From a virus, in UHGV virus genome UHGV-0259093: a stretch of DNA of 32,840 bases. One strand, written 5' to 3'. This document shows, piece after piece, positions 13,370 through 32,840 of the stretch. Within the stretch, counting starts at the first letter, position 1, and every line of letters begins with the position of its first letter. Below the pieces are notes generated by a model. The model was not told the origin of the DNA. It worked only from the letters and a program-made list of their open reading frames with translations, and did not search any database. The position numbers were made by a program, and so were the translations under genes.

Positions 13370-16300
13370 TTATTTATTCATTAGTTGTTGTACTAATGCT
13401 TTTAGTTCATCAATTTGTGATTGTTGATAATCATTATCTTTCTTCAATGATTGAACCGATCCCATTAAATCCATAACAATTGGGTTAACATCGATAGACG
13501 GTCTATCGCGTGTTAGTTGTTCTACTATGTTTCCTTCTTCATCAAGTACTTCATCATAGATTTCTGGATTGTGTTTCACATACTGAGGTGTGTTTATTTC
13601 TGACTCTTCGGCAATAATCCCAAAACGCTGGCGTTTTTGTTCATCATCTTTATAGACAAAATTAACCATTTTTTGAGATAAAATTCTTTCTAACGCTTCG
13701 TCGGTTTTTGCTTCTACAATATCTTCTTTATAGTCTCTACCGGATGTACCTTGTAAAGCCAATGCACCACCACCTAGCGGTAGTGAGATCCAATATTGTG
13801 GGCTTCCTGCTGCTGTGTAGGTCTGGAATCCGTAGTTGCCTACAGTTTCTGAAAAACCAGCACGGATACGTACAACACCATTTGATGCAAGATTACATGT
13901 ATAAGAGGCTGAACCGTTGGAACGTAGCATAATTGCATCAGTACCAGCACTTGAACCACCACACGTAACACGGTTGCTAGTTACATCGAATGTACCAGCA
14001 CATGTAGTATTACCTAATGCAGTAATAACACCGCCGAAATTCATGGTATTAGTAGTACGTGAATAGTTGAATAGAGCTACACCACCTGTATTATCACGGT
14101 TTAAACGGAATGATCCACCATCTGCTACAAATAGATATGTACTATCTGAGGAATCCGATTCTACAAATGATAAACATGGGTTTGTACTGGTAATAGTTAA
14201 TGGGTTTGACGCTGCGTTAGAGAATTTAGCAGTACCATTATTAGTTACGTTGATACCCGGCGTTGTAATTAGACTACTGAAATAAGAGCCACCATTACTA
14301 AAGGTCATTAAGCCCTGTCCAACGGTTGCGGAACCTTCACCAACATAGATACGTGCATCATAATCGTTTCCAGTACCGCTACTGTGAAAATCAATAAATG
14401 ATCCCGCCTTTGTTGTTGTACTGCCTAATTCAAAACCTACTGTACTTGTATTTAATGTACCAACCTGTAAGCCACCAGTTTTAATAGTTTGTGACCCGTT
14501 CCATTGGTTACCACCATCTAGCGTTGGGATAGTTACACCCAATTGATCATTCGTTAGGTATTCTTTCCATGCAGTCCACCCCGCCGTACCAGCTAATACA
14601 CGTCTCCATTTACGATTACTTGCGTAGGATGTATATTCTTGTACACAAGCCTGTGCGGTTCCTGCACCAGTTGGATATACGTATAAACCGCCAGCCTCGG
14701 CAATTGGGTATTTGTTAGCAGGGGTTGCACTTGCGTTTAGTGTTTGGTAATAGAATCCAGATTGAGCCGCACCCAATGTATCTAGGTTAACACTAGCGGC
14801 TAGTGCCGTCTGACTACGGTACATTGCCTGTAAATTATTACGGGCTGCATCTACACTATTTGCACCAGTACCGCCCTCTGTAATTGCAAGTTTATTCGTT
14901 AGTGTTAGTACACCATTGAAATGTAAACTTGCAGCCATAATATTCATTGAACCACTACCAGCCGCCGTAGTAGAACCGCCTGTAGATTGAATACGAGAAT
15001 CATAATCTACGGTACTACCGGAACTGTGAAAATCAATATAAGATGTACTAGCCGCTACTGTAGAGCCAATTTCAATACCGCCACCTGTGGAAGAATTAGC
15101 CGCAAATCTATTTTGATTGCCGTTAAATTGTTGGTTACCAGACCATGTATTTTCTGTACTTAATAGTGGGATTGTTGCACCAGAAGTACCAGTATTAATT
15201 ACTGCTGAAGTACCTAAGCCTAAGTTTGTACGTGCGTTAGCTACGTTAGTTAAATCAGATAGGTTACTTGCCTTAATAAGATACTTACCATCCATTGCAG
15301 TACTTGTAACGATACCTAAGTTTACTTGTGCCTGTGCAACGGTACTAGCACCTGTGCCACCGTTCGCCACTGGTACGATATCGAAAGTACCCGCCGCTTT
15401 AACGCCTAAGTTTGTACGTGCTTCTGCTGCCGTCTTAGCACCAGTACCGCCATTTGCTACCGTTAGAGCTTGACCTAAAGTTAATGATCCTGCACTTGCT
15501 ACGCCTAAAGTAGAAGTAGTGGTTTTAATACTTTCACCAGTGATTGCACCAGTTGCCTCTACATCTGCACCCGTAATTTTATTTGCAGAAATTAAGCTAT
15601 TGACTTTGACATTACCGGAAAATGTTTTATTCCCTGCAATAGTCTGATCACCAGTTAGAGCTACATACTTTGTATCACCTAGATTAGTTGTTAAAATACG
15701 TTGCCATGCGGTAGTCTGGTTTTTTGCATAGATTGCAAGTGAACCTGTTTTAGTCATTGCGATAGAACTAAAAGTAGTACCATCAATTAGACCTACACCC
15801 ATCATATCAGCACTGGCTGGATTACCCACTTGTGACGCTGGGATCTTGATAAAGCTGTTACCTAGTGGGCGTTCTGGTTGATACTGTGGTACATCACCAC
15901 CATTACTACCTACACCATAGGAACCTTCTACTAATGCTGCACTTGCTAACGCCGTACCATCACGTGTAATAACGTCTGTAGGTACAAAAGAATAGGTTTT
16001 CATTACTACGGTATCTTTATCACCAGATACGTTAGCTGATTGGATTTGACCATTAACCATTGAATAATTGATTAAACCATCTTCAATATTGTAGCGTAGT
16101 GTTAATTGAAATTCTTTTTGACTCTCGGTTGCAGCATCTAAGAAAGCATGTGTTTCATCATCTGGAATATAGTTAACAGTAATATCAATATTATCTACGT
16201 TTTGTTCTGCTGCTAGTTTAGATGAGTACTCACTATCGTATGTTTCAAGTGTTTGTATCTCACTTTCGATTCCAAATGACGGCATCGCTGCCAATTCGTT

Positions 16301-16396
16301 TATTTCTTCGTTGCCTGCATTATCGGGAATACGGTTAGCAGTATCATTATTATAGAATAACTTAAAGTTATTACCTGTAAAAATATCATTACTCAT
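13370..16396 (-). CDS. long side tail fiber with phage tail fiber repeats and C-terminal intramolecular chaperone (peptidase S74-type) domain
   Basis: Repeated ANGGTGAKTAAEARTNLG / ANGGTGASTVAQAQVNLG motifs. C-terminus GRDYKEDIVEAKTDEALERILSQKMVNFVYKDDEQKRQRFGIIAEE matches the auto-cleaving chaperone domain of endosialidase / L-shaped fibers. RBS aagga upstream. Confidence 0.8.
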   Translation of the reverse strand: MSNDIFTGNNFKLFYNNDTANRIPDNAGNEEINELAAMPSFGIESEIQTLETYDSEYSSKLAAEQNVDNIDITVNYIPDDETHAFLDAATESQKEFQLTLRYNIEDGLINYSMVNGQIQSANVSGDKDTVVMKTYSFVPTDVITRDGTALASAALVEGSYGVGSNGGDVPQYQPERPLGNSFIKIPASQVGNPASADMMGVGLIDGTTFSSIAMTKTGSLAIYAKNQTTAWQRILTTNLGDTKYVALTGDQTIAGNKTFSGNVKVNSLISANKITGADVEATGAITGESIKTTTSTLGVASAGSLTLGQALTVANGGTGAKTAAEARTNLGVKAAGTFDIVPVANGGTGASTVAQAQVNLGIVTSTAMDGKYLIKASNLSDLTNVANARTNLGLGTSAVINTGTSGATIPLLSTENTWSGNQQFNGNQNRFAANSSTGGGIEIGSTVAASTSYIDFHSSGSTVDYDSRIQSTGGSTTAAGSGSMNIMAASLHFNGVLTLTNKLAITEGGTGANSVDAARNNLQAMYRSQTALAASVNLDTLGAAQSGFYYQTLNASATPANKYPIAEAGGLYVYPTGAGTAQACVQEYTSYASNRKWRRVLAGTAGWTAWKEYLTNDQLGVTIPTLDGGNQWNGSQTIKTGGLQVGTLNTSTVGFELGSTTTKAGSFIDFHSSGTGNDYDARIYVGEGSATVGQGLMTFSNGGSYFSSLITTPGINVTNNGTAKFSNAASNPLTITSTNPCLSFVESDSSDSTYLFVADGGSFRLNRDNTGGVALFNYSRTTNTMNFGGVITALGNTTCAGTFDVTSNRVTCGGSSAGTDAIMLRSNGSASYTCNLASNGVVRIRAGFSETVGNYGFQTYTAAGSPQYWISLPLGGGALALQGTSGRDYKEDIVEAKTDEALERILSQKMVNFVYKDDEQKRQRFGIIAEESEINTPQYVKHNPEIYDEVLDEEGNIVEQLTRDRPSIDVNPIVMDLMGSVQSLKKDNDYQQSQIDELKALVQQLMNK

Positions 16397-16410: not shown

Positions 16411-16815
16411 TTATTGTTTTTGAGTTGCTACAATATTTATAGAGAATGATAAAGATTGATAACCAGTAGTCGGATCTGTAACTACTTCCCCATTGTCGAA
16501 TGCATATGATAATAGTGTTACTGCATTATCTTTAAATTCTTTAATTGTATTTGTTTTGAAATAATCCATAATTTCCCCGAAAATATCGGCGGGAAGTTTT
16601 ACTGATGGTTCGGGTACTAACAGGAATTGAAAATCAAATGTTCCCGTTTGTCTTTGAGTACCGAAATTTGTTAGGTTATAACTCTGGTTTACACTAACTA
16701 GAATGAATAGATCCTTACCTGCCTGAATATTCATAGCCTTTCGGATTGGTTGAATATTATTCAAACTCGTAATTATCGTGGTTTGTACGTCTTTTAACAG
16801 TGCCATAATTACCAC
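16411..16815 (-). CDS. head-tail connector or tail completion protein (by position)
   Basis: 134-aa ORF between the capsid and tail fiber genes. No motif recognised. Confidence 0.4.
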   Translation of the reverse strand: MVIMALLKDVQTTIITSLNNIQPIRKAMNIQAGKDLFILVSVNQSYNLTNFGTQRQTGTFDFQFLLVPEPSVKLPADIFGEIMDYFKTNTIKEFKDNAVTLLSYAFDNGEVVTDPTTGYQSLSFSINIVATQKQ

Positions 16816-17018
16816 CCATAGTTATTAATGGATGTTAGGCGTATATAGATTTCACTGATACCGCTTAAATCATCGTATACATTACTTACTGTATAACTAA
16901 CACCGCCGATACCTAGAATAGTACCTGCTGTAATATTATGCGTTTTAATATCTGCTGACTTTGCAGAAATAAACGTTTCTACACTTTCTACTAATCCTTC
17001 AGTACCGCTATCTAACAC
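16809..17018 (-). CDS. small hypothetical head-tail protein; track start is a GTG
   Basis: 69-aa ORF. The codon at 17016-17018 is GTG on the minus strand, so the true start is uncertain. Confidence 0.3.
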   Translation of the reverse strand: MLDSGTEGLVESVETFISAKSADIKTHNITAGTILGIGGVSYTVSNVYDDLSGISEIYIRLTSINNYGW

Positions 17019-17137
17019 AACGGGCGTACATCTACTATACCCGTAAATGACGCCCCGTTAATTGTGATAGGTTCACCAAAGGCATTTAAGAAAGTAGAAT
17101 CAATTTGATTACTTGTAAAATGCCTCATGGGTAATCC

Positions 17138-18988
17138 TTATGCTTGTAGTTTAATTTGTACGAATGCTTCCTCGTGACCGATTGCAGTGTCGAGATATTG
17201 GAAACTACGAATAGCGATAGTTTGAGCCGCACGATAAGTAGTATCGTCAAAATCTAGTTCTTGGCCTTCATTCCAGTTAGCGAAAATTAGCTCTGAGAAG
17301 TCACCGATTAGAATGGTATCTTGTGCAACGAAAGTAGATTCAATTACACGTACTTCATCGTTTAGCCACATGTCATAGCGATGACCTGCTACCATTGCTA
17401 CGGCTGCGGTATTGCTGAGAACTGCGGTTTGACGTAGTTTTGCTAGCATTGCTGGATGCACGATAGCTACACAACGATTAACATCAACGTTTGCTACACC
17501 TAGTGCCTCAATTGCTTTTTGTACGTCTGCTTCGGTTACTGTACCCGCTGCTGCTGTTTCTTGTACTGGTACTGCTAGTGCAATTTTATCAAATACTGCT
17601 TTTTCTAGACCGTTAGAGCAATGGCGTAGTAGTTCATCAGTTACATAACGTTCAGTTGCTGCATTGCTTAGTAGCATTGCTTTAGTAACTTTAATACCTG
17701 CTGCAAACATAGTAGGCTTTAGAGTGATCTTGTCGAAAGATTCAAAACCATCTACTACGGATTCATCTTCACCGTAGAATTTCGCTACAGGGTTCATACC
17801 TTTAGCACGTGGGATAGAGAAATTACCACGACCTGCTAGGCCACCAAATACAGTAACAGGTAGTTGACCTAGTACAGTACGTGCTAGTAGTTCACGTAGA
17901 TAAGAGTCGGCTAGTTGTTCTTTAACTAGACCTGCTGCGGTAACAGTAGAGGTAGTATCTGAAGTAGAACGTACCATTGCATTTAGATCAGCACTATAAC
18001 CACGTGAACCTTTATCAAAAGTTGCTAGTTGGTTATCTTCACCTTTAAGACTACGTAGACCTTCAGCGATTAGAGATTTATTTTCCATTTGTTTGATATC
18101 CTTATCAATTGATTTATCTTTATTTAGTAGTGAGCGTTTAAATTCATCTACGCTTACACCGTTTTTAATTGCTTCTTCGGTACTAATCCCTAGTACGTTA
18201 GAAATAGATTGAAGTTCGCGTACACGCTTATCTTCTACATCTTTATTTAGTTTTTCTTGAATATTGATTTCAGTAGTTGCAATAGAACGTTCTTCTACTA
18301 GTTCCACTTCTTGAAGTGGTTCGGATACTTCTTCTTTTACTTCTTCTTCTTTCACATCTTCAGCGACTACTACAACTTCTTCAGTAACTTCTAATTCTGG
18401 TTGTACTTCTACTTCCTGAATTTCTTCTACGGCTTCTACTTGTGGTAATTCTTGTTTTTGTTCTTCCATGATTGGTTGATCCTCTAAAGTGATTTCTTCA
18501 TTTCTATTTAGTGATCTTCCAATTCCTACTGTATTGTCTGCGGGGGTACTTACTGAACTTAATTCATATGGTTCCCATCGAGTTACATATAAATTATCAC
18601 CTTCAAAGTAATAATCTTTAATGTTGTAACCTACTGATACTTTCGGGCGAATGCCTTCTAAGATCATACCGAAAATAGTTGTAGCACTTCCTAAAGCACT
18701 AAAGCGTACTGTTGCACGACATACTTTATCCATATCTACGCGGGCGTTTTCTACTATTCCAACTTGACGCATTGCATCATGTTCTACTAGAACTGGTGCA
18801 CCATCATTAAGACGGTTTAAATCTACGTTCTCTGGATTGCATAGAAGGATCTCATTAAATAGAGATCCGTTGATTTCGCGAGTTACTGGAATTTCTGAGG
18901 CAAAAGATAATTCGACGGTACGATCATTTTCATCAATAGCATTACTGATCTGTGTTAGATTGATCGCCCTCTTCTGGTTCAATTCCAT
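17138..18988 (-). CDS. prohead protease - acidic scaffold-like linker - HK97-fold major capsid protein fusion
   Basis: N-terminal ~170 aa resemble HK97-type prohead protease (ELSFASEIPVTREI...VLVEHD). Highly acidic coiled region (EEQKQELPQVEAVEEIQEVEVQPELEVTEEVVVVAEDVKEEEVKEEV). C-terminal ~300 aa are capsid-like. Sits between portal and connector genes. Confidence 0.75.
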   Translation of the reverse strand: MELNQKRAINLTQISNAIDENDRTVELSFASEIPVTREINGSLFNEILLCNPENVDLNRLNDGAPVLVEHDAMRQVGIVENARVDMDKVCRATVRFSALGSATTIFGMILEGIRPKVSVGYNIKDYYFEGDNLYVTRWEPYELSSVSTPADNTVGIGRSLNRNEEITLEDQPIMEEQKQELPQVEAVEEIQEVEVQPELEVTEEVVVVAEDVKEEEVKEEVSEPLQEVELVEERSIATTEINIQEKLNKDVEDKRVRELQSISNVLGISTEEAIKNGVSVDEFKRSLLNKDKSIDKDIKQMENKSLIAEGLRSLKGEDNQLATFDKGSRGYSADLNAMVRSTSDTTSTVTAAGLVKEQLADSYLRELLARTVLGQLPVTVFGGLAGRGNFSIPRAKGMNPVAKFYGEDESVVDGFESFDKITLKPTMFAAGIKVTKAMLLSNAATERYVTDELLRHCSNGLEKAVFDKIALAVPVQETAAAGTVTEADVQKAIEALGVANVDVNRCVAIVHPAMLAKLRQTAVLSNTAAVAMVAGHRYDMWLNDEVRVIESTFVAQDTILIGDFSELIFANWNEGQELDFDDTTYRAAQTIAIRSFQYLDTAIGHEEAFVQIKLQA

Positions 18989-20435
18989 TTTCCATTTTTT
19001 CCTTTTGTATTTCTTCCATGACTACCGCCGGGTCATAACCCATTTCACTAATAACCATTGCTTTACTCTTAAGTCCTGAATCAATTGCAAGTACCTCAGT
19101 TTGAAGGTCTTTATATGGATCAAGTGAGATTTGGCGAGTTGGTACATATTGGGCATGAGTTAGATTATTGAAGTCACTAAAACTTAAATTGCTTAATGCA
19201 CTATTATTTATCATTGCTGCTTTCAACCACGTAACATAAAGAGGCTTAAGTACAGAAACGATTAACGCATTAGTACGAGTTTTAAATGTTGATTGTTGTA
19301 GTTTGTCCGTTAGTTTTGCTGCACTAAATGAAGCATTACTAGTATCAGAGGTTAGGGATTGTTTTGTAATATCAAGCCCCATTGCAATCATCATTAATTG
19401 GTTATCTACGAATTCACTAATACCATCTGTAGTTTGTGTAGGGTTAACAGTTTTAATATCCTGTCCTGCCTGTAGTTCTACGATAGCTGCCGGATTTAGA
19501 TAATCTTGTTCATAGTAAGAAACATCATCACCTTTTAGTAATTCGATTTCATCACTATCTGGATTAGTAATAAATGCCATTGCTGAAGCTGCTACTTTAC
19601 GAGAAGTAATAGCCGCAACCATGAATTCTTCTAATTCTTTTAATTTATCAGTACCTGCATGTACATCTGGAATACCGCGTTGCTGTGTTGGGTAGTCCTG
19701 CTGGAATAGGTGTAGAATCTCTTCTGCTGGTACTCGTTCACGTTCACCTAAAAGGTAGTTGTACATGATAGGGTTATAGCGAGTAATCCAATATGCAACC
19801 GGGCGATTAGTATCAATATCAAATTCAATACCATTACTGATATAGTTACCTGAAGGTAGAATCTGGTTTTCATATGTACTAATTCGCATTGAGTCGATGA
19901 TCTCTACCTGTGGCATACCATCACGCGTTTGGTGAATGCGGATAAAGCAATCTCCATCGATACTACGAGTACGTTCTACAAGGCGTTGGAATGTACTGAT
20001 ATCAAGCGTACCGCAACGGGAAAAGGCTTTAGGATCTTCGGCCCATGCATAAAAAGCATCTTCTAACTGTTTATTCACCTGTTGGTTTACTTTGTCATCC
20101 TGTGAACTATGCGAACAAGGGCGAATATATAGACCATCTGCACCAGTAACACCCGCTGAGTTAGTCGCAACGTACTTTTTAACGATACCGTTTTTAATAG
20201 ATAGTTCACGGCTTGCCGCTACCATCACTGGTAAAGTACGATTAATAATTGCGTTAATGTTCCCGGCTTGATTTCCTGCGGTGAATCCGAATGAAATAAC
20301 AGGACTACTTGAACCTAGATTTAGGGAAGTCATAGCACGTTTCATTGGGTTGTTTTTCATTAATGCAGTTTTATGTATTTGTACTTTTGGTTTTTCTGGT
20401 TCCTGTACTTTTTTATTTTTATTCCATCCGAACAT
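18942..20435 (-). CDS. portal protein
   Basis: 497-aa ORF immediately downstream of the large terminase and upstream of the protease-capsid gene. Size and synteny typical of lambda-family portals. Confidence 0.75.
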   Translation of the reverse strand: MFGWNKNKKVQEPEKPKVQIHKTALMKNNPMKRAMTSLNLGSSSPVISFGFTAGNQAGNINAIINRTLPVMVAASRELSIKNGIVKKYVATNSAGVTGADGLYIRPCSHSSQDDKVNQQVNKQLEDAFYAWAEDPKAFSRCGTLDISTFQRLVERTRSIDGDCFIRIHQTRDGMPQVEIIDSMRISTYENQILPSGNYISNGIEFDIDTNRPVAYWITRYNPIMYNYLLGERERVPAEEILHLFQQDYPTQQRGIPDVHAGTDKLKELEEFMVAAITSRKVAASAMAFITNPDSDEIELLKGDDVSYYEQDYLNPAAIVELQAGQDIKTVNPTQTTDGISEFVDNQLMMIAMGLDITKQSLTSDTSNASFSAAKLTDKLQQSTFKTRTNALIVSVLKPLYVTWLKAAMINNSALSNLSFSDFNNLTHAQYVPTRQISLDPYKDLQTEVLAIDSGLKSKAMVISEMGYDPAVVMEEIQKEKMENGIEPEEGDQSNTDQ

Positions 20436-20962
20436 TAACGCCCCCTATGAAATGTTGTAATAGATTTAATAGGGCTACCTGCGTTTAGTCCTTTCATATC
20501 TGAAATTAAATCGTTTGCCCTTTTAACATAGGTAGAACGTAGGCGTAGAAGTACTTCGCTTGATTCATAAGTTAGGGCTTTATTTTGTATTGATTGACTT
20601 AGTACACCACCACCTTTAATACGGTCTAGTGTAATTTGGTCAATATCTTTTATGATCTGAATTAGATCATTATATTCTGAGGCTTTACTAGTTGGATCAG
20701 TTACTTCAAATTGTTGTACACCGTATGCTTTAGGACTATCAATAATTGCAGTCCAGATACCCACGCCCCACGTATTAGTATCAATATCAGGGAATGGGTA
20801 AACATAGGAAGTTTTAACACCGTTAGGATCTATCAAATCGATATTAGTTCCTTCTGGATAGTTGAAAGTAATTGTTTCACCTTTGATAATATCGCCTTTT
20901 AAATCAACTTTGCGAACAATTGCCATTTGTTTTATTTCCTTATTTAAAGAATCCTCCACCAC
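20435..20962 (-). CDS. hypothetical head protein (occupies the gpW head-tail joining position between terminase and portal)
   Basis: 175-aa ORF; synteny only. Confidence 0.4.
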   Translation of the reverse strand: MVEDSLNKEIKQMAIVRKVDLKGDIIKGETITFNYPEGTNIDLIDPNGVKTSYVYPFPDIDTNTWGVGIWTAIIDSPKAYGVQQFEVTDPTSKASEYNDLIQIIKDIDQITLDRIKGGGVLSQSIQNKALTYESSEVLLRLRSTYVKRANDLISDMKGLNAGSPIKSITTFHRGR

Positions 20963-22868
20963 GTCTAGACGGACGTACTACACGACCTGTTTTTACTGGT
21001 GCTGGTTCTTCTTTATTTACTTCTTTATTTAGTCCTTTCTCTTTTTGTTTGGCGTTGAATTCGCGTAGTTTGCGGAATGGCTGATTACCTAATTTAGATA
21101 GATACCAGTGGAAACATATTAAAGCGTAGTTAAGACAATCAAGCGTTTCATTCCTTGCTGAACTAATTTTCTTAACCCATACCCACGCCCCAGCTTTAAT
21201 AACTCTCTTCTCACTTGATACCTGAATAAAGTAATCATCTGGTACTGAATGGCTGAAGTGTATTTGTACTTCACTACTATTACCACTATCCGATACTGCA
21301 CGGTTTAATAGTTGTCTAATATTACTTTTCCCTAAGTTTACGTTTAGGTTTATTAGACTATGACCACCAGCCGTAGAGCCTTTAAAGAGTGGGTTAGTAT
21401 TTGAAGTACCGCCCTTGATTGGTTTAAAGATTGTCGATGCACTACAATAGCGATATACCGTACTGGTTGCGTTACCGTTCGAACTATCTACAAAACCTGC
21501 AAGTACTTTAAGTGGTTTACCGGATACGGTTTTAAAGTTAGTTTGTGAAAATGCTGTTAGCTTATTCCATGCGGGAGCCTCTATTTTAGTACAGTCAATG
21601 CTATGAATACTGCGATGATCGAGTACATAAAGATTCTTTTCACTTATTCCTAACGTTGTTACTTCAAGGCGGTCTAACTGTTGGTCTACACCTAGTACGA
21701 TTCCTTGACAGTCATCCGGCACGGTATCTATATCTATTGAACTATCACGTAGGTTTTCAAGTAATACTAAATCATGATCGGTATTCTCTTTATCAATATA
21801 AGGAAGTCCTAAGACGTTATTGTAGAATGAGGCTAGATCAAATGTATAATGTGCTTCGGCAAAATCCTGTACTATTGATTTGATCGAGTTAATCGGGGAG
21901 TATAAACGGCTAATATGATACCCCATGATATCCGTTACTTCTGGTACTGTAGCTATCCATTCACCCTTACGTACCATTCTTACACGTTCGGCTTCTGTGA
22001 TTACATTATTACACTTAGGACATTGTAGTTTTGCTGTCTCTGCATCTGGAATGCGACGACGACCACCATCAATAATTTTCCAGTCGAATTTAACATTTTC
22101 AAATACTAATTCATGTGCATGATCACAATGTGGGCAAGGTACGTAGAACTTCTGTTTATTACTTTGCTCGTACTGCTGAGTGATTAAATCATTCTCATCA
22201 AGTGGTGTAGAACAAACCATAATAAGAGGGTTGCTAAAAGCCTTTGTACGCTGTTCTGCTAGCTTTAGTGGGTTCCCTTCATCACCATCTGCATCTACGT
22301 TAGATATTTCGTCAAGAAAGATACGGGGGGCTGTCAAGCCTCGCAAATTCGCACTACTACCCAATGTTAGGAAGTACGTAAAAGTACCGTCTAAGTTTTG
22401 TTGTGTCTTATCATTATTAGTATAGTTTTTATCATTCTTATTACTGACTAGATTTTTAAGTACTGCACATGCTTCGATTACTGATTGCCATTTACCAGTA
22501 CGAAACTTACTAGTAGTGCTGGCTGTTGCACCTGCGAAAATTAGATTGCTTGGATCATTTGCGAGGAAGTAGTACATACTATTCTGTAAAACTGTTGTTT
22601 TGAGAAGTTGTGCACTGCTCATCAAAACTATTTTTCTAATTCTTGGATTAGTAATGTCATTTATGGGCTTGTGCTGAAAGGAAAATAACTTTACGCGTTG
22701 TCCTTGTAGTTCCCCATCCGGGAATACTAAATTATTCTCTACCCATTCCGCTGGTAGTTGTCGCTTCGGAGGTAGGATCGACTTCGCCGCCCTCGTTAGT
22801 ACCTTCATCATCTTCTGGTAGTTGTTCATCCGTGTATGTTCCTTCATATTCATAGCTACCAATTTCAT
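20940..22868 (-). CDS. terminase large subunit, GpA family
   Basis: 642 aa. PCPHCDHAHELVF, GVDQQLDRLEVTTLG and ARNETLDCLNYALI parallel lambda gpA ACPHCGEEQYLKF, GIDSQLDRYEMRVWG and RRNEALDCFVYALA. Several in-frame Met near the N-terminus, so the true start may be later than 22868. Confidence 0.9.
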   Translation of the reverse strand: MKLVAMNMKEHTRMNNYQKMMKVLTRAAKSILPPKRQLPAEWVENNLVFPDGELQGQRVKLFSFQHKPINDITNPRIRKIVLMSSAQLLKTTVLQNSMYYFLANDPSNLIFAGATASTTSKFRTGKWQSVIEACAVLKNLVSNKNDKNYTNNDKTQQNLDGTFTYFLTLGSSANLRGLTAPRIFLDEISNVDADGDEGNPLKLAEQRTKAFSNPLIMVCSTPLDENDLITQQYEQSNKQKFYVPCPHCDHAHELVFENVKFDWKIIDGGRRRIPDAETAKLQCPKCNNVITEAERVRMVRKGEWIATVPEVTDIMGYHISRLYSPINSIKSIVQDFAEAHYTFDLASFYNNVLGLPYIDKENTDHDLVLLENLRDSSIDIDTVPDDCQGIVLGVDQQLDRLEVTTLGISEKNLYVLDHRSIHSIDCTKIEAPAWNKLTAFSQTNFKTVSGKPLKVLAGFVDSSNGNATSTVYRYCSASTIFKPIKGGTSNTNPLFKGSTAGGHSLINLNVNLGKSNIRQLLNRAVSDSGNSSEVQIHFSHSVPDDYFIQVSSEKRVIKAGAWVWVKKISSARNETLDCLNYALICFHWYLSKLGNQPFRKLREFNAKQKEKGLNKEVNKEEPAPVKTGRVVRPSRRGGGFFK

Positions 22869-23463
22869 TTAATTGATCATCTATTTTTTCCTGTAGTTTG
22901 ATTTTTAATTCTAATGCGTCTGCTGATTCGAATAATTCAACATAACTTGACGCGGGAATACTTCTTAATACTTGGCGTAGTTGGTAGAAGTATTGGGATA
23001 AAGTTTGCTGTACTACTGCTACTGGTATTAGCTCGCCGGATTGCTGACGTAATTCCATTTCTTTAATATCAGCTTCTGCTTCTAACTTACGTAGTGTTGC
23101 TTTTTGTATTTGGCCTTTTGTATCACCGCTTCTTAGTGGTTCGATTACGTTTGCAAGTAACCAATCGTCAACTAATTTCTTAGGCCAGGTGATATCTAAA
23201 CCTTTACCAGACCATATACGGCTAACAGTAGAATGCTCTACGCCGAAACGATCCGCGATTTCTTGCCACGTGTAGCGGGTTCCATCGTCTTTAATTTTTG
23301 CCATTTTGTTTAGTCCTTGTTTAGTACAATAAACCTGTACTTTCCTTTTATTTCGTTTTGTTTGTTTTCGATTAGAAATCCCACGAATTTTAAATACAAT
23401 TCGCGGCGAAAACTCGATTTTTTTGTTCTCAATTAGAGAACCTAAAGTTAAAACTTCACTCAC
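22732..23463 (-). CDS. terminase small subunit with HTH; likely true start at ATG 23304 (MAKIKDD...)
   Basis: YTWQEIADRFGVEHSTVSRIW helix-turn-helix, acidic C-terminus, directly upstream of the large terminase. The track start at 23463 is a GTG. aagga RBS precedes the internal ATG. Confidence 0.65.
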   Translation of the reverse strand: MSEVLTLGSLIENKKIEFSPRIVFKIRGISNRKQTKRNKRKVQVYCTKQGLNKMAKIKDDGTRYTWQEIADRFGVEHSTVSRIWSGKGLDITWPKKLVDDWLLANVIEPLRSGDTKGQIQKATLRKLEAEADIKEMELRQQSGELIPVAVVQQTLSQYFYQLRQVLRSIPASSYVELFESADALELKIKLQEKIDDQLNEIGSYEYEGTYTDEQLPEDDEGTNEGGEVDPTSEATTTSGMGRE

Positions 23464-25388: not shown

Positions 25389-26114
25389 TTATTTCCTTAA
25401 TAACTTTTTTAATTCCTCAACTGTCTTCATTTCTTTTCCAATATGAATCATTGCATGACAGTTTGCACATAAAGGTATAAGATCTTCAATTGGGTCAATC
25501 TTATAGCGTTTACCAATAGTATGTAGTGGCACTATATGATGAACATGAATATAATTTTTTCCGTGACTTCCATACACTTCTTCAAAATTAAAACCACAGA
25601 CACCACAACTCAAACCATGTTTATCGATACATTCTTTTCTAGCCTTTGGATCTCTCTCATAGTACGTAGCAATCCTTTGATGCTTTTCACCTTCATAGTA
25701 TTCACTTTCTATTTCAGGTGTGAATGAATAGTAATCTTCATCGGTGGCATACCAATCTCCATCTTTTTTAGTAAGATATTTTCGTACTATTTTCTTTTCA
25801 AAATGTTTAATCCTAGCAGCACCATTTTCAGTTGTTTTCTCATGCCTAGTCTGGCTAAAGGTGAAAAGACTATACCCTTCATGTAAAATTTTATCTATGT
25901 GTTCGATAGATTGTGTATAACCATTTTTTTTGTGTCCATTTACATTTTCACGCCAACTGCTAGCCAAGATTAAAACTTTCTTACCATCATCTGATCTAAG
26001 ATCTTCCCAAGCTCCAAAAATTATTTTTTTGTTGATCTCATCAATAAATGACCAACTCCAGTTATCATTTTTACATGTAGCACCCAAAGAACGCATGAAC
26101 TCTGTTCGGGACAT
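25389..26114 (-). CDS. HNH-family endonuclease of restriction type (COG3183-like) with an uncharacterised N-terminal domain
   Basis: C-terminus ERDPKARKECIDKHGLSCGVCGF...IHVHHIVPL...DLIPLCANCHAMIH carries the Cys pair and His/Asn-type HNH motif of predicted HNH restriction endonucleases. Confidence 0.75.
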   Translation of the reverse strand: MSRTEFMRSLGATCKNDNWSWSFIDEINKKIIFGAWEDLRSDDGKKVLILASSWRENVNGHKKNGYTQSIEHIDKILHEGYSLFTFSQTRHEKTTENGAARIKHFEKKIVRKYLTKKDGDWYATDEDYYSFTPEIESEYYEGEKHQRIATYYERDPKARKECIDKHGLSCGVCGFNFEEVYGSHGKNYIHVHHIVPLHTIGKRYKIDPIEDLIPLCANCHAMIHIGKEMKTVEELKKLLRK

Positions 26115-29478: not shown

Positions 29479-29964
29479 TTAGTTGTCTTTTGCAACCTTT
29501 GTATATGTCTGTCTATGTGTACTTCTATTGTACTTTTCATTCATGAATAGCGTGATATTGATACATGACATTCCACCAGTGTATAACGCCTTTACTTCAT
29601 CTTTTTGTACTGGTGTTAGACGTGGTTCATTTTGTTTCTTACGTACTGCCTTACATGAATTTTCACTATATGTAATCCACTGCAAATTAGAAATATTGTT
29701 GTCTCGTTTATCACTATTGATATTATCTACAACTAATCTTTTATTTGTTTGGGGTTTACTTAGAAATGTTTCTGCTACGAGTCTGTGTGTCTCTATCGGA
29801 TATGATTTAGATTTCCCATCCTCATAAACAGTTAAAGTAACTTTATAGTACCCATTACTTTTACTATAACTCTGTGTTAGATAATTACCCGTTTTAGTAT
29901 TGCGTACTTCTCCGTTACTACTTACTTCATAATTTACATATTGTGTTTGTTTCCATAATGTCAT
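29479..29964 (-). CDS. HNH homing endonuclease (NUMOD4-like N-terminus plus HNH_3 motif)
   Basis: YEVSSNGEVRNTKTGNYL and HRLVAETFLSKPQTNKRLVVDNINSDKRDNNISNLQWITYSEN are the hallmark motifs of phage-encoded HNH homing endonucleases. Confidence 0.8.
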   Translation of the reverse strand: MTLWKQTQYVNYEVSSNGEVRNTKTGNYLTQSYSKSNGYYKVTLTVYEDGKSKSYPIETHRLVAETFLSKPQTNKRLVVDNINSDKRDNNISNLQWITYSENSCKAVRKKQNEPRLTPVQKDEVKALYTGGMSCINITLFMNEKYNRSTHRQTYTKVAKDN

Positions 29965-30941: not shown

Positions 30942-32840
30942 CTAGATCTGGTCTATCCGATAACGCTCTATGAACTCTTTACGTGTTAAACCAGTCGATT
31001 CTAATGCAGTGGCTATATCCTTTGGAACTCGACCATTCAAGGCAATACTATATGTATTGCCTTCATACACAATGTCTACTCGATCATACTTTCCGGTATT
31101 AGGCCAGAATGAAGCCCCACTTATTTCACTATAACCAACCACTTCTAACATCTCATTAGCAGTATTGAACAGATCTAAATAACTTTGTTCAATTTTATCA
31201 AGTTGTTCCACTGCTTTATTAAATAATGGCAGATTGCTAGTGGTAAGAAATCCTTCATCTCTGATACTTACATTATCAACAGAAGAAAATTCAACTTTAA
31301 ACGCCCAATGTGGTTTTCTATCAGTTCCACCAAAAACTAACCATTCATCTTTAAAATGATACTTTATTTTTATCGTTATACACCCATCAGTTTTATCAAC
31401 TATAACACTTTCAATAATAGAACTAATTACTTTCCTTATTTTATTTCTATCCGTATCCTGCATATTTGTAAAAACCGCCCACTGAATAAGAATCATAAAT
31501 TCATTTATATCGACTTCTAGAGATCCTTTACCTTTCAGTGAATATAAGCGTTCTTTTAACTTATCAACTTCCAGAACAGTCTTTTTACGTTCCATATCAA
31601 ACGCATTTAGTTGAACTGCTAACGCACTAACATTAGGAGCAATTGCTATTGCTTGAGCCATGTTTGTTATGCGAGATTCCAGATCAGTTATCAACGTTTC
31701 TTTTCTACTGAGGTCTTCTTCTATCACAGTTGTGTCAATACCATCTTTTAGTCTCTTATTCATGTAACCGATCAGTAGTGAAATGATCGTACAGTGTTCA
31801 ACTAATTGTGCTGATATAGACCAGCCAGAACAGTTTTTTTGTAAGTGAACCCCATTAGTACAAATATAGCGAGCACTGCCATGATTCATGAAAGAATGCA
31901 TAGTTCCTCCACACTTGCTACACCGTAACACCTGCAACCCTGATAACAATTTAATTTCTTCTACTTTGTCTTTCTTAGCCTTGAAGTTGTTTTGCTGCTT
32001 ACGTTCAGCCAAGGTTAAATACTCTGCTTCATCTTTGCATAACCATGGATAGTAGTTATCAAGTTTGTAAGTAGCACCACCAGCATTGATAGTCCTTTCA
32101 CCAATCAACGCCCGATTATCACGCATCTTTTTCAATACCTGATAATCCCATTCTTTACCCTTTAAACCATTAGGATATTTTTTATCGAGATGACGCTTTA
32201 CTGTATAGATGCCATTCCCATCTAAAAACATGTCTATAGCTTCGCGAGCGATACTCCAGTAAACGGGATGTTCTTTTACTGCTTCATATTGCGAACCTGA
32301 ATCATCTATCCAAAATGGATGGCGACCAACTGACTTAATGTTTACTGGCAACCCTGCTTTATGACGTTCGACCAAGGCAACAACATTGCCTATGGTCCTG
32401 TTAGATTTCGTTTCTGATTCTTCATTGCCACGGATAAACATCAGAATAGAAATCATCAGATCAGTAGGGTTTTGTCTGATGGATTCTCTGTTATAGACCT
32501 TCCGATCCATTCCTGTGACAATCGTTAGCCCTAAACCAATCAATTCAAGGAATAAACGAAGTGCTTCATCCACCTGATCGCGTGATAGTCGGTCGAGGTT
32601 TTCACAGTAAAGCCAAGAGTCAGACGGTATAGCATTATTTTTTACGGCGTCTATGAAGTCACCCAACTTACCCGCCCTATTTTTTCCCCTGTAAGCACTC
32701 GTGCCAGGTTCCAAAATTTCAACCATTTCAAGCCCCGCTTCTTCAGCATAGGCTTTCGCTGCCGCTACCTGCCTGTTCTTGGTTGTTCCTTTTTCTTGGC
32801 GATCACTTGACCACCTGATATAGCTATAAAGTTGCGGCAT
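30942..32840 (-). CDS. large serine recombinase (phage integrase type)
   Basis: N-terminal YIRWSSDRQ with catalytic Ser and LDRLSRD typical of the resolvase domain. 632 aa, Cys-rich zinc-ribbon-like segment (CSKCGG...CTNG). ATG is the last three bases of the window. Confidence 0.9.
   Translation of the reverse strand: MPQLYSYIRWSSDRQEKGTTKNRQVAAAKAYAEEAGLEMVEILEPGTSAYRGKNRAGKLGDFIDAVKNNAIPSDSWLYCENLDRLSRDQVDEALRLFLELIGLGLTIVTGMDRKVYNRESIRQNPTDLMISILMFIRGNEESETKSNRTIGNVVALVERHKAGLPVNIKSVGRHPFWIDDSGSQYEAVKEHPVYWSIAREAIDMFLDGNGIYTVKRHLDKKYPNGLKGKEWDYQVLKKMRDNRALIGERTINAGGATYKLDNYYPWLCKDEAEYLTLAERKQQNNFKAKKDKVEEIKLLSGLQVLRCSKCGGTMHSFMNHGSARYICTNGVHLQKNCSGWSISAQLVEHCTIISLLIGYMNKRLKDGIDTTVIEEDLSRKETLITDLESRITNMAQAIAIAPNVSALAVQLNAFDMERKKTVLEVDKLKERLYSLKGKGSLEVDINEFMILIQWAVFTNMQDTDRNKIRKVISSIIESVIVDKTDGCITIKIKYHFKDEWLVFGGTDRKPHWAFKVEFSSVDNVSIRDEGFLTTSNLPLFNKAVEQLDKIEQSYLDLFNTANEMLEVVGYSEISGASFWPNTGKYDRVDIVYEGNTYSIALNGRVPKDIATALESTGLTRKEFIERYRIDQI

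Follow-up and report, generated by a model that had tools for sequence, protein, structure and literature searches.

The virus genome UHGV-0259093 (32,840 nucleotides [nt]; "the window" below means this whole stretch of DNA) carries on its minus strand, at positions 17138 to 18988, one open reading frame (ORF) of 616 codons that joins a prohead protease, a linker, a scaffold-like segment, and an HK97-fold major capsid protein. Judging from translation signals within the ORF and in its relatives, the gene probably makes two products, a protease-scaffold-capsid chain and a scaffold-capsid chain. A 68-kDa long form would begin at the annotated ATG and a 49-kDa, protease-free short form at Met174, with its own ribosome-binding site (RBS), and the two would co-assemble on the portal through the capsid and scaffold parts that they have in common. 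The protease would enter the procapsid covalently tethered to a subset of the subunits, at a dose set by how often the two starts initiate relative to each other. In the shell, cleavage after Arg340 would follow, with further cuts probable after Arg158 and within the scaffold; removal of everything N-terminal of about Ser341 would leave a mature capsid protein of 276 residues and 30 kDa. We infer internal start use, co-assembly, cleavage positions, and proteolytic activity from the domain identities, the fold, the invariant residues, and a conserved signature of RBS, ATG, and open mRNA, and we regard the explanation as a whole, from tethered protease to cleavage, as likely. An earlier note on this stretch, made from its letters alone, had described the frame as a fusion that replaces separate protease, scaffold, and capsid genes.

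Translation signals at Met174

Met174 is unchanged in 117 of 117 close homologues, and the residues flanking it vary. The sequence GAGGA upstream of its ATG resembles a Shine-Dalgarno (SD) element, and its predicted duplex with the anti-SD sequence is near-identical in energy (-5.8 kcal/mol) to that of the AAGGA preceding the annotated start of the fusion gene (-5.6 kcal/mol); the GG pair lies at -13/-12 and -14/-13 in the two sites. Either GAGGA or AAGGA is conserved in four sublineages of the clade to which the window belongs. In the Salmonella/Citrobacter sublineage Glu is replaced by Lys and GAGGA becomes AAGGA with complementarity kept, which argues for selection on the RNA.

Several points weigh against a second start. 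The evidence for it is wholly computational, and use of Met174 is a prediction that we grade as probable. In the window's clade the SD-like element is weak (a 4- to 5-nt core) and lies 11 to 14 nt from the ATG, farther than the family optimum, which could make internal initiation inefficient. Five of the 61 related loci surveyed below, all of one sublineage (L008 to L011 and L013, with an N-terminus 52 to 55% identical), have no linker ATG at all, and a fusion is thus apparently workable without a nested start. Their linkers consist of about 100 residues of Glu, Asp, Thr, Asn, and Gln, and these genes may be obligate single-product fusions.

A survey of linker ATGs in related loci

With a 31-sequence N-terminal alignment, 80 related loci with DNA available were taken from IMG/VR; 71 of 82 IMG/VR relatives are complete fusions, and 61 remain after dereplication. 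An in-frame ATG occurs 3 to 60 codons past the GxGR motif that ends the protease domain in 56 of the 61 (median, 17 codons). Within the first 36 codons past the domain (a 34-codon test span, codons 3 to 36) it is present in 54 of 61, compared with 54% expected from Met frequency (p = 1e-8). At the protein level, the linkers of 115 relatives have a Met 7 to 35 residues past the protease domain, and the next residue is in most cases E, D, S, T, N, or P.

These linker ATGs are preceded by SD-like sequences. Anti-SD pairing energies, computed over positions -18 to -4, are much stronger at the first linker ATG than at the three background sets (Table 1; Mann-Whitney p~1e-21), and when sites are ranked within each gene the ATG site has a median rank of 0.03. 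In strength the internal site equals or exceeds the start of the long ORF, with 80% versus 63% of sites at or below -5 kcal/mol. Complementarity is limited to 7-mers starting at -16 to -10, corresponding to the canonical placing of -15 to -7, and is flat elsewhere. We considered whether the signal could be a by-product of the Glu, Lys, and Gly codons of these linkers; the within-linker control and the positional profile rule this out. The mRNA is also open at the site, the 50 nt around the linker ATG having a median minimum free energy of -5.65, compared with -10.4 at other linker positions (p = 6e-12) and -12.0 in the rest of the gene (p = 5e-21).

Table 1. Anti-SD pairing at linker ATGs and control positions in the surveyed fusions
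Position	n	Median anti-SD energy (kcal/mol)	Share at or below -5
First linker ATG	56	-6.2	80%
Other in-frame ATGs	754	-2.1	14%
All codon positions	33,036	-2.1	13%
Other positions in the same linkers (control for Glu/Lys/Gly codon composition)	2,748	-1.55	11%
First ATG of the long ORF (positive control)	60	-5.45	63%

Two other accounts of the locus have to be set against these signals. The gene could be an obligate single-product polyprotein, in which only the 616-aa chain is made and the protease of each subunit is cut away after assembly. The ORF is indeed continuous and without a stop, Met1, the annotated start, is kept in 96% of relatives, the sublineage without a linker ATG shows that a pure fusion can be viable, and the SD spacing at the internal site is long in the window's clade. 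What this account leaves unexplained is that an ATG, a correctly placed SD, and open mRNA are kept in an unconserved linker in 45 to 56 of 61 diverse lineages, and that Met174 is invariant among the 117 close homologues; we consider it unlikely. Alternatively, the internal SD and ATG might not act as a start at all, but be the relic of an ancestral gene fusion or an SD-like pause site that aids co-translational folding of the protease. Since HK97 gp4 ends 2 nt before gp5 in adjacent genes, a lost stop codon would have exactly this result, but a relic should have decayed in lineages with 25 to 30% identity and no other linker conservation. A pause site needs neither an ATG at canonical spacing nor locally unstructured mRNA, and the Glu-to-Lys change with kept complementarity also counts against this account, which we regard as improbable. 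With a second start at Met174 preferred, the contrast with separate genes drawn in the earlier note stands in part: there is one frame, and the window has no separate protease or scaffold gene, but the conserved RBS and ATG indicate a nested protease-free product.

One close relative (L006, IMGVR_UViG_2859253449_000003), with an N-terminus 83% identical, has one extra T in a T-run about 60 nt past the protease domain. Its protease ORF stops 21 codons past the GxGR motif; scaffold and capsid are read on in another frame, beginning with the same 'FMEEQENK' Met. Either the fusion has split naturally at the predicted internal start, or the extra T is a sequencing error.

Integrity and position of the ORF

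The minus strand of 17138 to 18988 is one ORF of 616 codons without interruption, as the earlier note had it without naming the strand; read on the plus strand, the interval has stops throughout. Close relatives comprise more than 120 cluster representatives from independent Escherichia coli, Shigella, Citrobacter, Salmonella, and Enterobacter assemblies, with 73 to 99% identity, lengths of 585 to 621 aa, and collinearity over 96 to 100% of the query, and the same arrangement is found in E. coli chromosomes and in Vibrio phage VP882. The frame might in principle have arisen by an assembly or sequencing error that joined protease and capsid genes through a frameshift, and a homopolymer frameshift does exist in the very next gene of the window. 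However, the same architecture recurs in the more than 120 close representatives, each with the frame intact, and in thousands of distant ones, and the linker is in frame throughout; this account is effectively refuted, and with it the concern, raised in the earlier note, that a hidden frameshift or stop might undo the fusion.

The ORF is a head-assembly gene of a lambda/HK97-like prophage. It follows terminase, head-tail joining, and portal genes and is followed by head-tail joining genes, a gene for a 1008-aa tail fibre, and tail genes. The head module is lambda-like, and all of these genes are on the minus strand. Neither the head module nor the rest of the window has a separate protease, scaffold, or decoration gene.

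The 3' end of the portal gene overlaps the start of the fusion by 47 nt (18942 to 18988) in a different frame. The overlap is 53 nt in an E. coli relative (L001), 44 nt in VP882, and 56 and 47 nt in two more relatives (L085 and L086). Because a similar overlap is conserved in relatives, it suggests that translation of the long form may be coupled to that of the portal gene.

The N-terminal protease domain

We conclude from comparisons with relatives, profiles, and structure that the N-terminal domain is an S78-type serine protease, divergent but intact, with proteolytic activity predicted, and the protease-like N-terminus described in the earlier note is thus upheld. The domain matches PHROG 4523, 'major head and protease protein' (E = 1e-42), and phrog_80, 'head maturation protease' (direct match, E = 2e-4), and residues 18 to 290 match NCBIfam NF045541, 'prohead protease/major capsid protein fusion protein' (E = 3e-36). 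The NF045541 score of 125 bits is below the cutoff of 525 with the match limited to those residues, and the protein falls outside this narrowly defined 'exception' model, although its architecture is the same. With residues 1 to 172 as the query, 5,178 cluster representatives were recovered at E<=1e-3, the best of them mostly 570 to 680 aa long and matching at their N-termini. PF04586 (Peptidase_S78) is matched by 64 of 76 relatives that have 22 to 56% full-length identity to the query and 40 to 59% over the N-terminal domain (best E = 3e-13), and VP882 gp07 is above the Pfam cutoff for this family. A further 25 relatives have precomputed matches to both PF04586 and PF05065 and carry the JGI name 'major capsid protein/prohead protease'.

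No part of the protein is as well conserved as the N-terminal domain, and His70, Ser118, Gly77, Tyr121, Asp151, and Arg158 are invariant across 150 sequences. His70 and Ser118 correspond to His65 and Ser114 of HK97 gp4 (Table 2), the catalytic residues of that protease, and hhalign also pairs YELSSVSTPAD with REISVCTFPAN of HK97 gp4. The domain has the assemblin/T4 gp21-like fold; T4 gp21 and the herpesvirus assemblins are structural relatives with only 13 to 15% identity, and belong to different families and gene contexts.

Against this assignment, Peptidase_S78 does not match the whole protein at E<=0.01 or residues 1 to 172 alone at E<=10, with HK97 gp4 as a positive control at E = 5e-30, and the hhalign comparison with HK97 gp4 as a single sequence is marginal (E = 0.02 over 56 columns) and covers only the Ser motif and the C-terminal motif. 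A PDB search with the single sequence returned only noise, and a PDB profile search found capsid proteins only and no solved sequence relative of the protease domain. We read the direct Pfam failure as one of sensitivity, because relatives match PF04586 and the structure supports the assignment; of the two domain searches that the earlier note had proposed, the Phage_capsid profile matches directly and Peptidase_S78 only through relatives.

The missing Pfam match is also what one would point to if the N-terminal domain were a catalytically dead protease fold, serving only as scaffold or spacer, with cleavage by a host or another phage protease. That is very improbable given the six residues invariant in 150 sequences, the conservation of the domain above all other parts, and the lack of any other protease gene in the window.

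The linker and the scaffold-like segment

The earlier note had singled out an acidic, scaffold-like run of about 60 residues dominated by Glu and Val. The run itself is real, with 23 Glu and 14 Val, along with 6 Gln, in residues 174 to 233, and at the DNA level it contains only short imperfect repeats of 3 to 15 nt. As a scaffold it is ruled out, being disordered, unconserved, and clade specific. In the full-length AlphaFold model residues 155 to 240 are disordered, with a predicted local distance difference test (pLDDT) score of about 30. Many indels occur in the run even among relatives that are 75 to 99% identical, one of which is without about 35 residues there, and distant relatives have only a short Ala/Pro/Thr linker in its place. 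For these reasons we describe the Glu/Val run as a clade-specific spacer.

The conserved scaffold-like element is instead, as modeled, the helical segment of about residues 236 to 330, which appears comparable to the 102-residue delta domain of HK97 and in which Arg255, Ser279, and Gly330 are conserved. In this segment distant relatives have the motif '[ED][IV]G[ML][ST]xxExxxYS[LF]', which reads 'IKQMENKSLIAEGL' here (residues ~295 to 312, nt ~18053 to 18106). Met301, with AAGGA upstream, was considered as an internal start and rejected; it is probably not a start, because the position belongs to the conserved protein motif 'IG[M/L]S..E...YS', in which Met alternates with Leu.

The capsid domain and predicted processing

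The C-terminus is an HK97-fold capsid protein, as the earlier note had proposed. Residues 354 to 613 match Pfam Phage_capsid (PF05065; E = 2.8e-16; 60.2 bits, cutoff 24.2), and TIGR01554 is likewise above its cutoff (49 versus 27.5 bits). A family profile compared with solved capsid proteins matches 8GTA at E = 8e-73 and HK97 at ~1e-20. In the AlphaFold model a low-confidence stretch at residues 331 to 361 is followed by the HK97 fold, and a Foldseek search with the full-length model recovers 8GTA (E = 2e-13), HK97 structures (~1e-11), and the D3 and gene transfer agent capsids, with target TM-scores of 0.6 to 0.7 for 8GTA and HK97. The HK97 crosslink residue Lys169 (which pairs with Asn356 and is HK97 specific) is placed by hhalign opposite a Val, in an alignment of about 12% identity and unreliable register.

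Maturation cleavage would probably occur after Arg340, which is kept in 96% of 110 full-length sequences (the query and 109 diverse relatives) and does not vary in the 31-sequence alignment. Its position is just upstream of the capsid N-arm, and the local sequence MVR|STSDTTSTV resembles FNK103|SLGSDADSAG of HK97, whose mature chain (1OHG) comprises 282 of 385 residues. The best solved relative is that of roseophage R4C, encoded by a 629-codon gene that is collinear with the ORF, protease motifs included (E = 7e-30). Its virion chain, 8GTA, consists of residues 362 to 629 only and begins at the equivalent of residue 351/352 here, 11 residues downstream of the equivalent R-S pair; as aligned, this is consistent with removal of the N-terminal 340 to 350 residues in this family. 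Two points weigh on the other side: 8GTA may represent just the modelled part of the chain and no biochemically mapped mature end, and the R4C structure paper has no discussion of protease, cleavage, or processing. A second cut, after Arg158, would release the protease itself. Arg158 is present in 150 of 150 sequences, the following residue is Ser in 92 of the 150, and pLDDT falls from residue 155, but as a self-release site it is speculative.

Other features of the window

Coordinates of the fusion gene, its parts, and the upstream head genes are collected in Table 2.

Table 2. Features of the fusion gene and adjacent head genes (positions in the window)
Feature	Positions	Strand	Remarks
Small terminase	22732-23463	-	
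Large terminase, gpA-type	20940-22868	-	
Head-tail joining protein	20435-20962	-	
Portal gene, lambda family	18942-20435	-	PF05136, E = 4e-62
Full ORF, long form	17138-18988	-	616 aa, 68.2 kDa; protease, linker, scaffold-like segment, and HK97-fold capsid protein; PHROG 617 full-length match, E = 7e-90
Prohead serine protease domain, residues 17-158	18515-18940	-	S78/HK97-type, assemblin fold
His70 codon, predicted catalytic histidine (VLVEH70D...VG)	18779-18781	-	Invariant in 150 sequences; equals HK97 gp4 His65 (FFNH65K...PVG) by inspection
Ser118 codon, predicted catalytic serine (KVS118VGY)	18635-18637	-	Invariant in 150 sequences; paired by hhalign with HK97 gp4 Ser114 (GMS114VGF)
Arg158 codon, end of V-G-[VI]-G-R motif at protease domain boundary	18515-18517	-	Possible self-release cleavage site
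Disordered linker, residues 159-235	18284-18514	-	pLDDT 28-42; not conserved, gap-rich
Shine-Dalgarno-like GAGGA, -15 to -11 from internal ATG	18480-18484	-	Anti-SD duplex -5.8 kcal/mol
Internal in-frame ATG (Met174), predicted second translation start	18467-18469	-	Met in 117/117 close homologues
Predicted nested gene, short form Met174-Ala616	17138-18469	-	443 aa, 48.8 kDa; acidic run, helical scaffold, and capsid protein
Glu/Val-rich run, residues 174-233	18290-18469	-	23 E and 14 V of 60; isoelectric point 4.05; clade-specific, indel-rich
Helical scaffold-like (HK97 delta-domain-like) segment, residues 236-330	17999-18283	-	AlphaFold helices 236-266, 271-275, 280-289, 294-300, 303-315
Arg340-Ser341, predicted maturation cleavage site	17966-17971	-	Arg340 conserved; like HK97 K103|S104
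Predicted mature HK97-fold major capsid protein, residues 341-616	17141-17968	-	276 aa, 29.9 kDa

The head-tail joining gene directly downstream of the fusion (16809 to 17127, minus strand) is split by a 1-nt deletion in a C-run at about 17026 to 17032, which reads CGCCCCGT in three homologues and CGCCCGT in the window. A 38-aa ORF runs from the ATG at 17127, and the other 69 aa are in another frame; the homologues have one gene of 103 to 106 aa with a weak match to Pfam Phage_attach. Either the homopolymer was misread in sequencing, or the prophage is decaying and the mutation has inactivated the gene. Farther downstream, a 1008-aa tail-fibre gene (13370 to 16396, minus strand) occupies an unusual place, with head-completion genes on one side and the tail tube gene on the other. 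The homologue in E. coli bears the annotation 'pyocin knob domain-containing S74 family peptidase', and the S74 annotation indicates a C-terminal intramolecular chaperone.

The G+C content of the window is 36.8%, and the prophages most closely related to it come from E. coli, Citrobacter, Salmonella, and Shigella, the genomes of which are about 50% G+C. The head region is matched in only 2 of 5,426 complete E. coli genomes, at 78% DNA identity. Two HNH endonuclease genes and a large serine recombinase-type integrase gene (PHROG 95, E = 2e-45) are on the minus strand at 25389 to 26114, 29479 to 29964, and 30942 to 32840, and the integrase gene runs to the end of the window. An E. coli relative is integrated beside yegD/yegI, with yegD truncated.

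Comparison with known systems

Protease-capsid fusions are a known architecture with thousands of members, and the one in the window is not unusual. The architecture is not new because it is cataloged in PHROG 617 and 4523, in NF045541, and in actinophage annotations. These families have the same domain order in one ORF, protease first; residues 4 to 613 of the window protein match positions 8 to 622 of the 626 in the PHROG 617 profile (Table 2), and VP882 is 29% identical over 86% of the query. Head-module synteny in R4C, VP882, and the fusion relatives is as in the window. GenBank annotations of such genes include 'major capsid protein and protease', the actinophage label is 'capsid and protease fusion', and the actinobacteriophage literature describes these fusions as 'common in small-genome siphoviruses' (PMC9671004; PMC6606914). 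What sets the enterobacterial clade apart is a divergent protease domain that Pfam misses and an expanded Glu/Val-rich spacer. The gene is widespread in prophages of E. coli, Citrobacter, and Salmonella, and its NCBI name is only 'phage major capsid protein', because Pfam misses the divergent domain, and our analysis corrects that annotation.

A nested start in these fusions was not described in the annotations and literature that we searched, mostly outside subscription journals, and a prior description is possible; a CBASS preprint deals with protease-scaffold fusions, not protease-capsid fusions. It is somewhat probable, in our judgment, that the thousands of protease-capsid 'fusions' of tailed phages are two-product nested genes, with a minority long form, a majority short precursor resembling HK97 gp5, and a protease dose set by two competing RBSs. 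If so, the Glu/Val run of the enterobacterial clade would be the N-terminal tail of the short form and no inter-domain linker. Taken literally, a fusion supplies one protease per capsid subunit, about 415 in a T=7 shell, which is hard to square with HK97-like systems; HK97 packages far fewer proteases than capsid subunits. A nested start would remove this puzzle of protease number and explain targeting without a dedicated tail, and it would change the annotation and engineering of such genes, for example as capsid or encapsulin-like nanocontainers.

The closest parallel in parts is HK97 itself. The protease family and fold, the catalytic His and Ser motifs, and the gene order portal-protease-capsid are alike, as are the helical N-terminal scaffold within the capsid protein and a cut between a basic residue and Ser (K103|S104 in HK97; R340|S341, as predicted, here), and the mature capsid proteins are similar in size (282 aa and a predicted 276 aa). 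In HK97, however, protease and capsid protein have separate genes, divided by a stop codon that lies 2 nt ahead of the gp5 start, whereas the ORF in the window has no stop and ribosomes from upstream read on into the capsid protein. HK97 gp4 reaches the procapsid by means of its own C-terminal tail of about 65 residues, and in the window gene the part of that tail would be taken by a covalent tether. The terminase and portal of the window also differ from those of HK97 in being of lambda type (gpA and Phage_portal_2).

In its predicted expression the gene resembles nested protease/scaffold genes, of which lambda C/Nu3 (with SD sequences at both starts), UL26/UL26.5 of the herpesvirus HSV-1, and gp17/gp17.5 of the archaeal virus HFTV1 are examples (bioRxiv 10.64898/2026.09.13.751334). 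In each pair an in-frame internal start past the protease domain yields a shorter, protease-free assembly protein, presumably more abundant, with a common C-terminus. Two products are demonstrated for those pairs and predicted for the window gene; in the pairs the common C-terminal part is the scaffold only and the capsid gene is separate, whereas the window gene would share scaffold and capsid protein between its products. The lambda gpC protease is of a different family (ClpP/S49-like). By analogy, the locus would work like a nested pair without being a member of the C/Nu3 family, and would stand closer to lambda C/Nu3 than the earlier note assumed. If the nested start is used, it would join the adjacent genes of HK97, the nested genes of lambda and the herpesviruses, and the protease-capsid fusions as variants of one theme.

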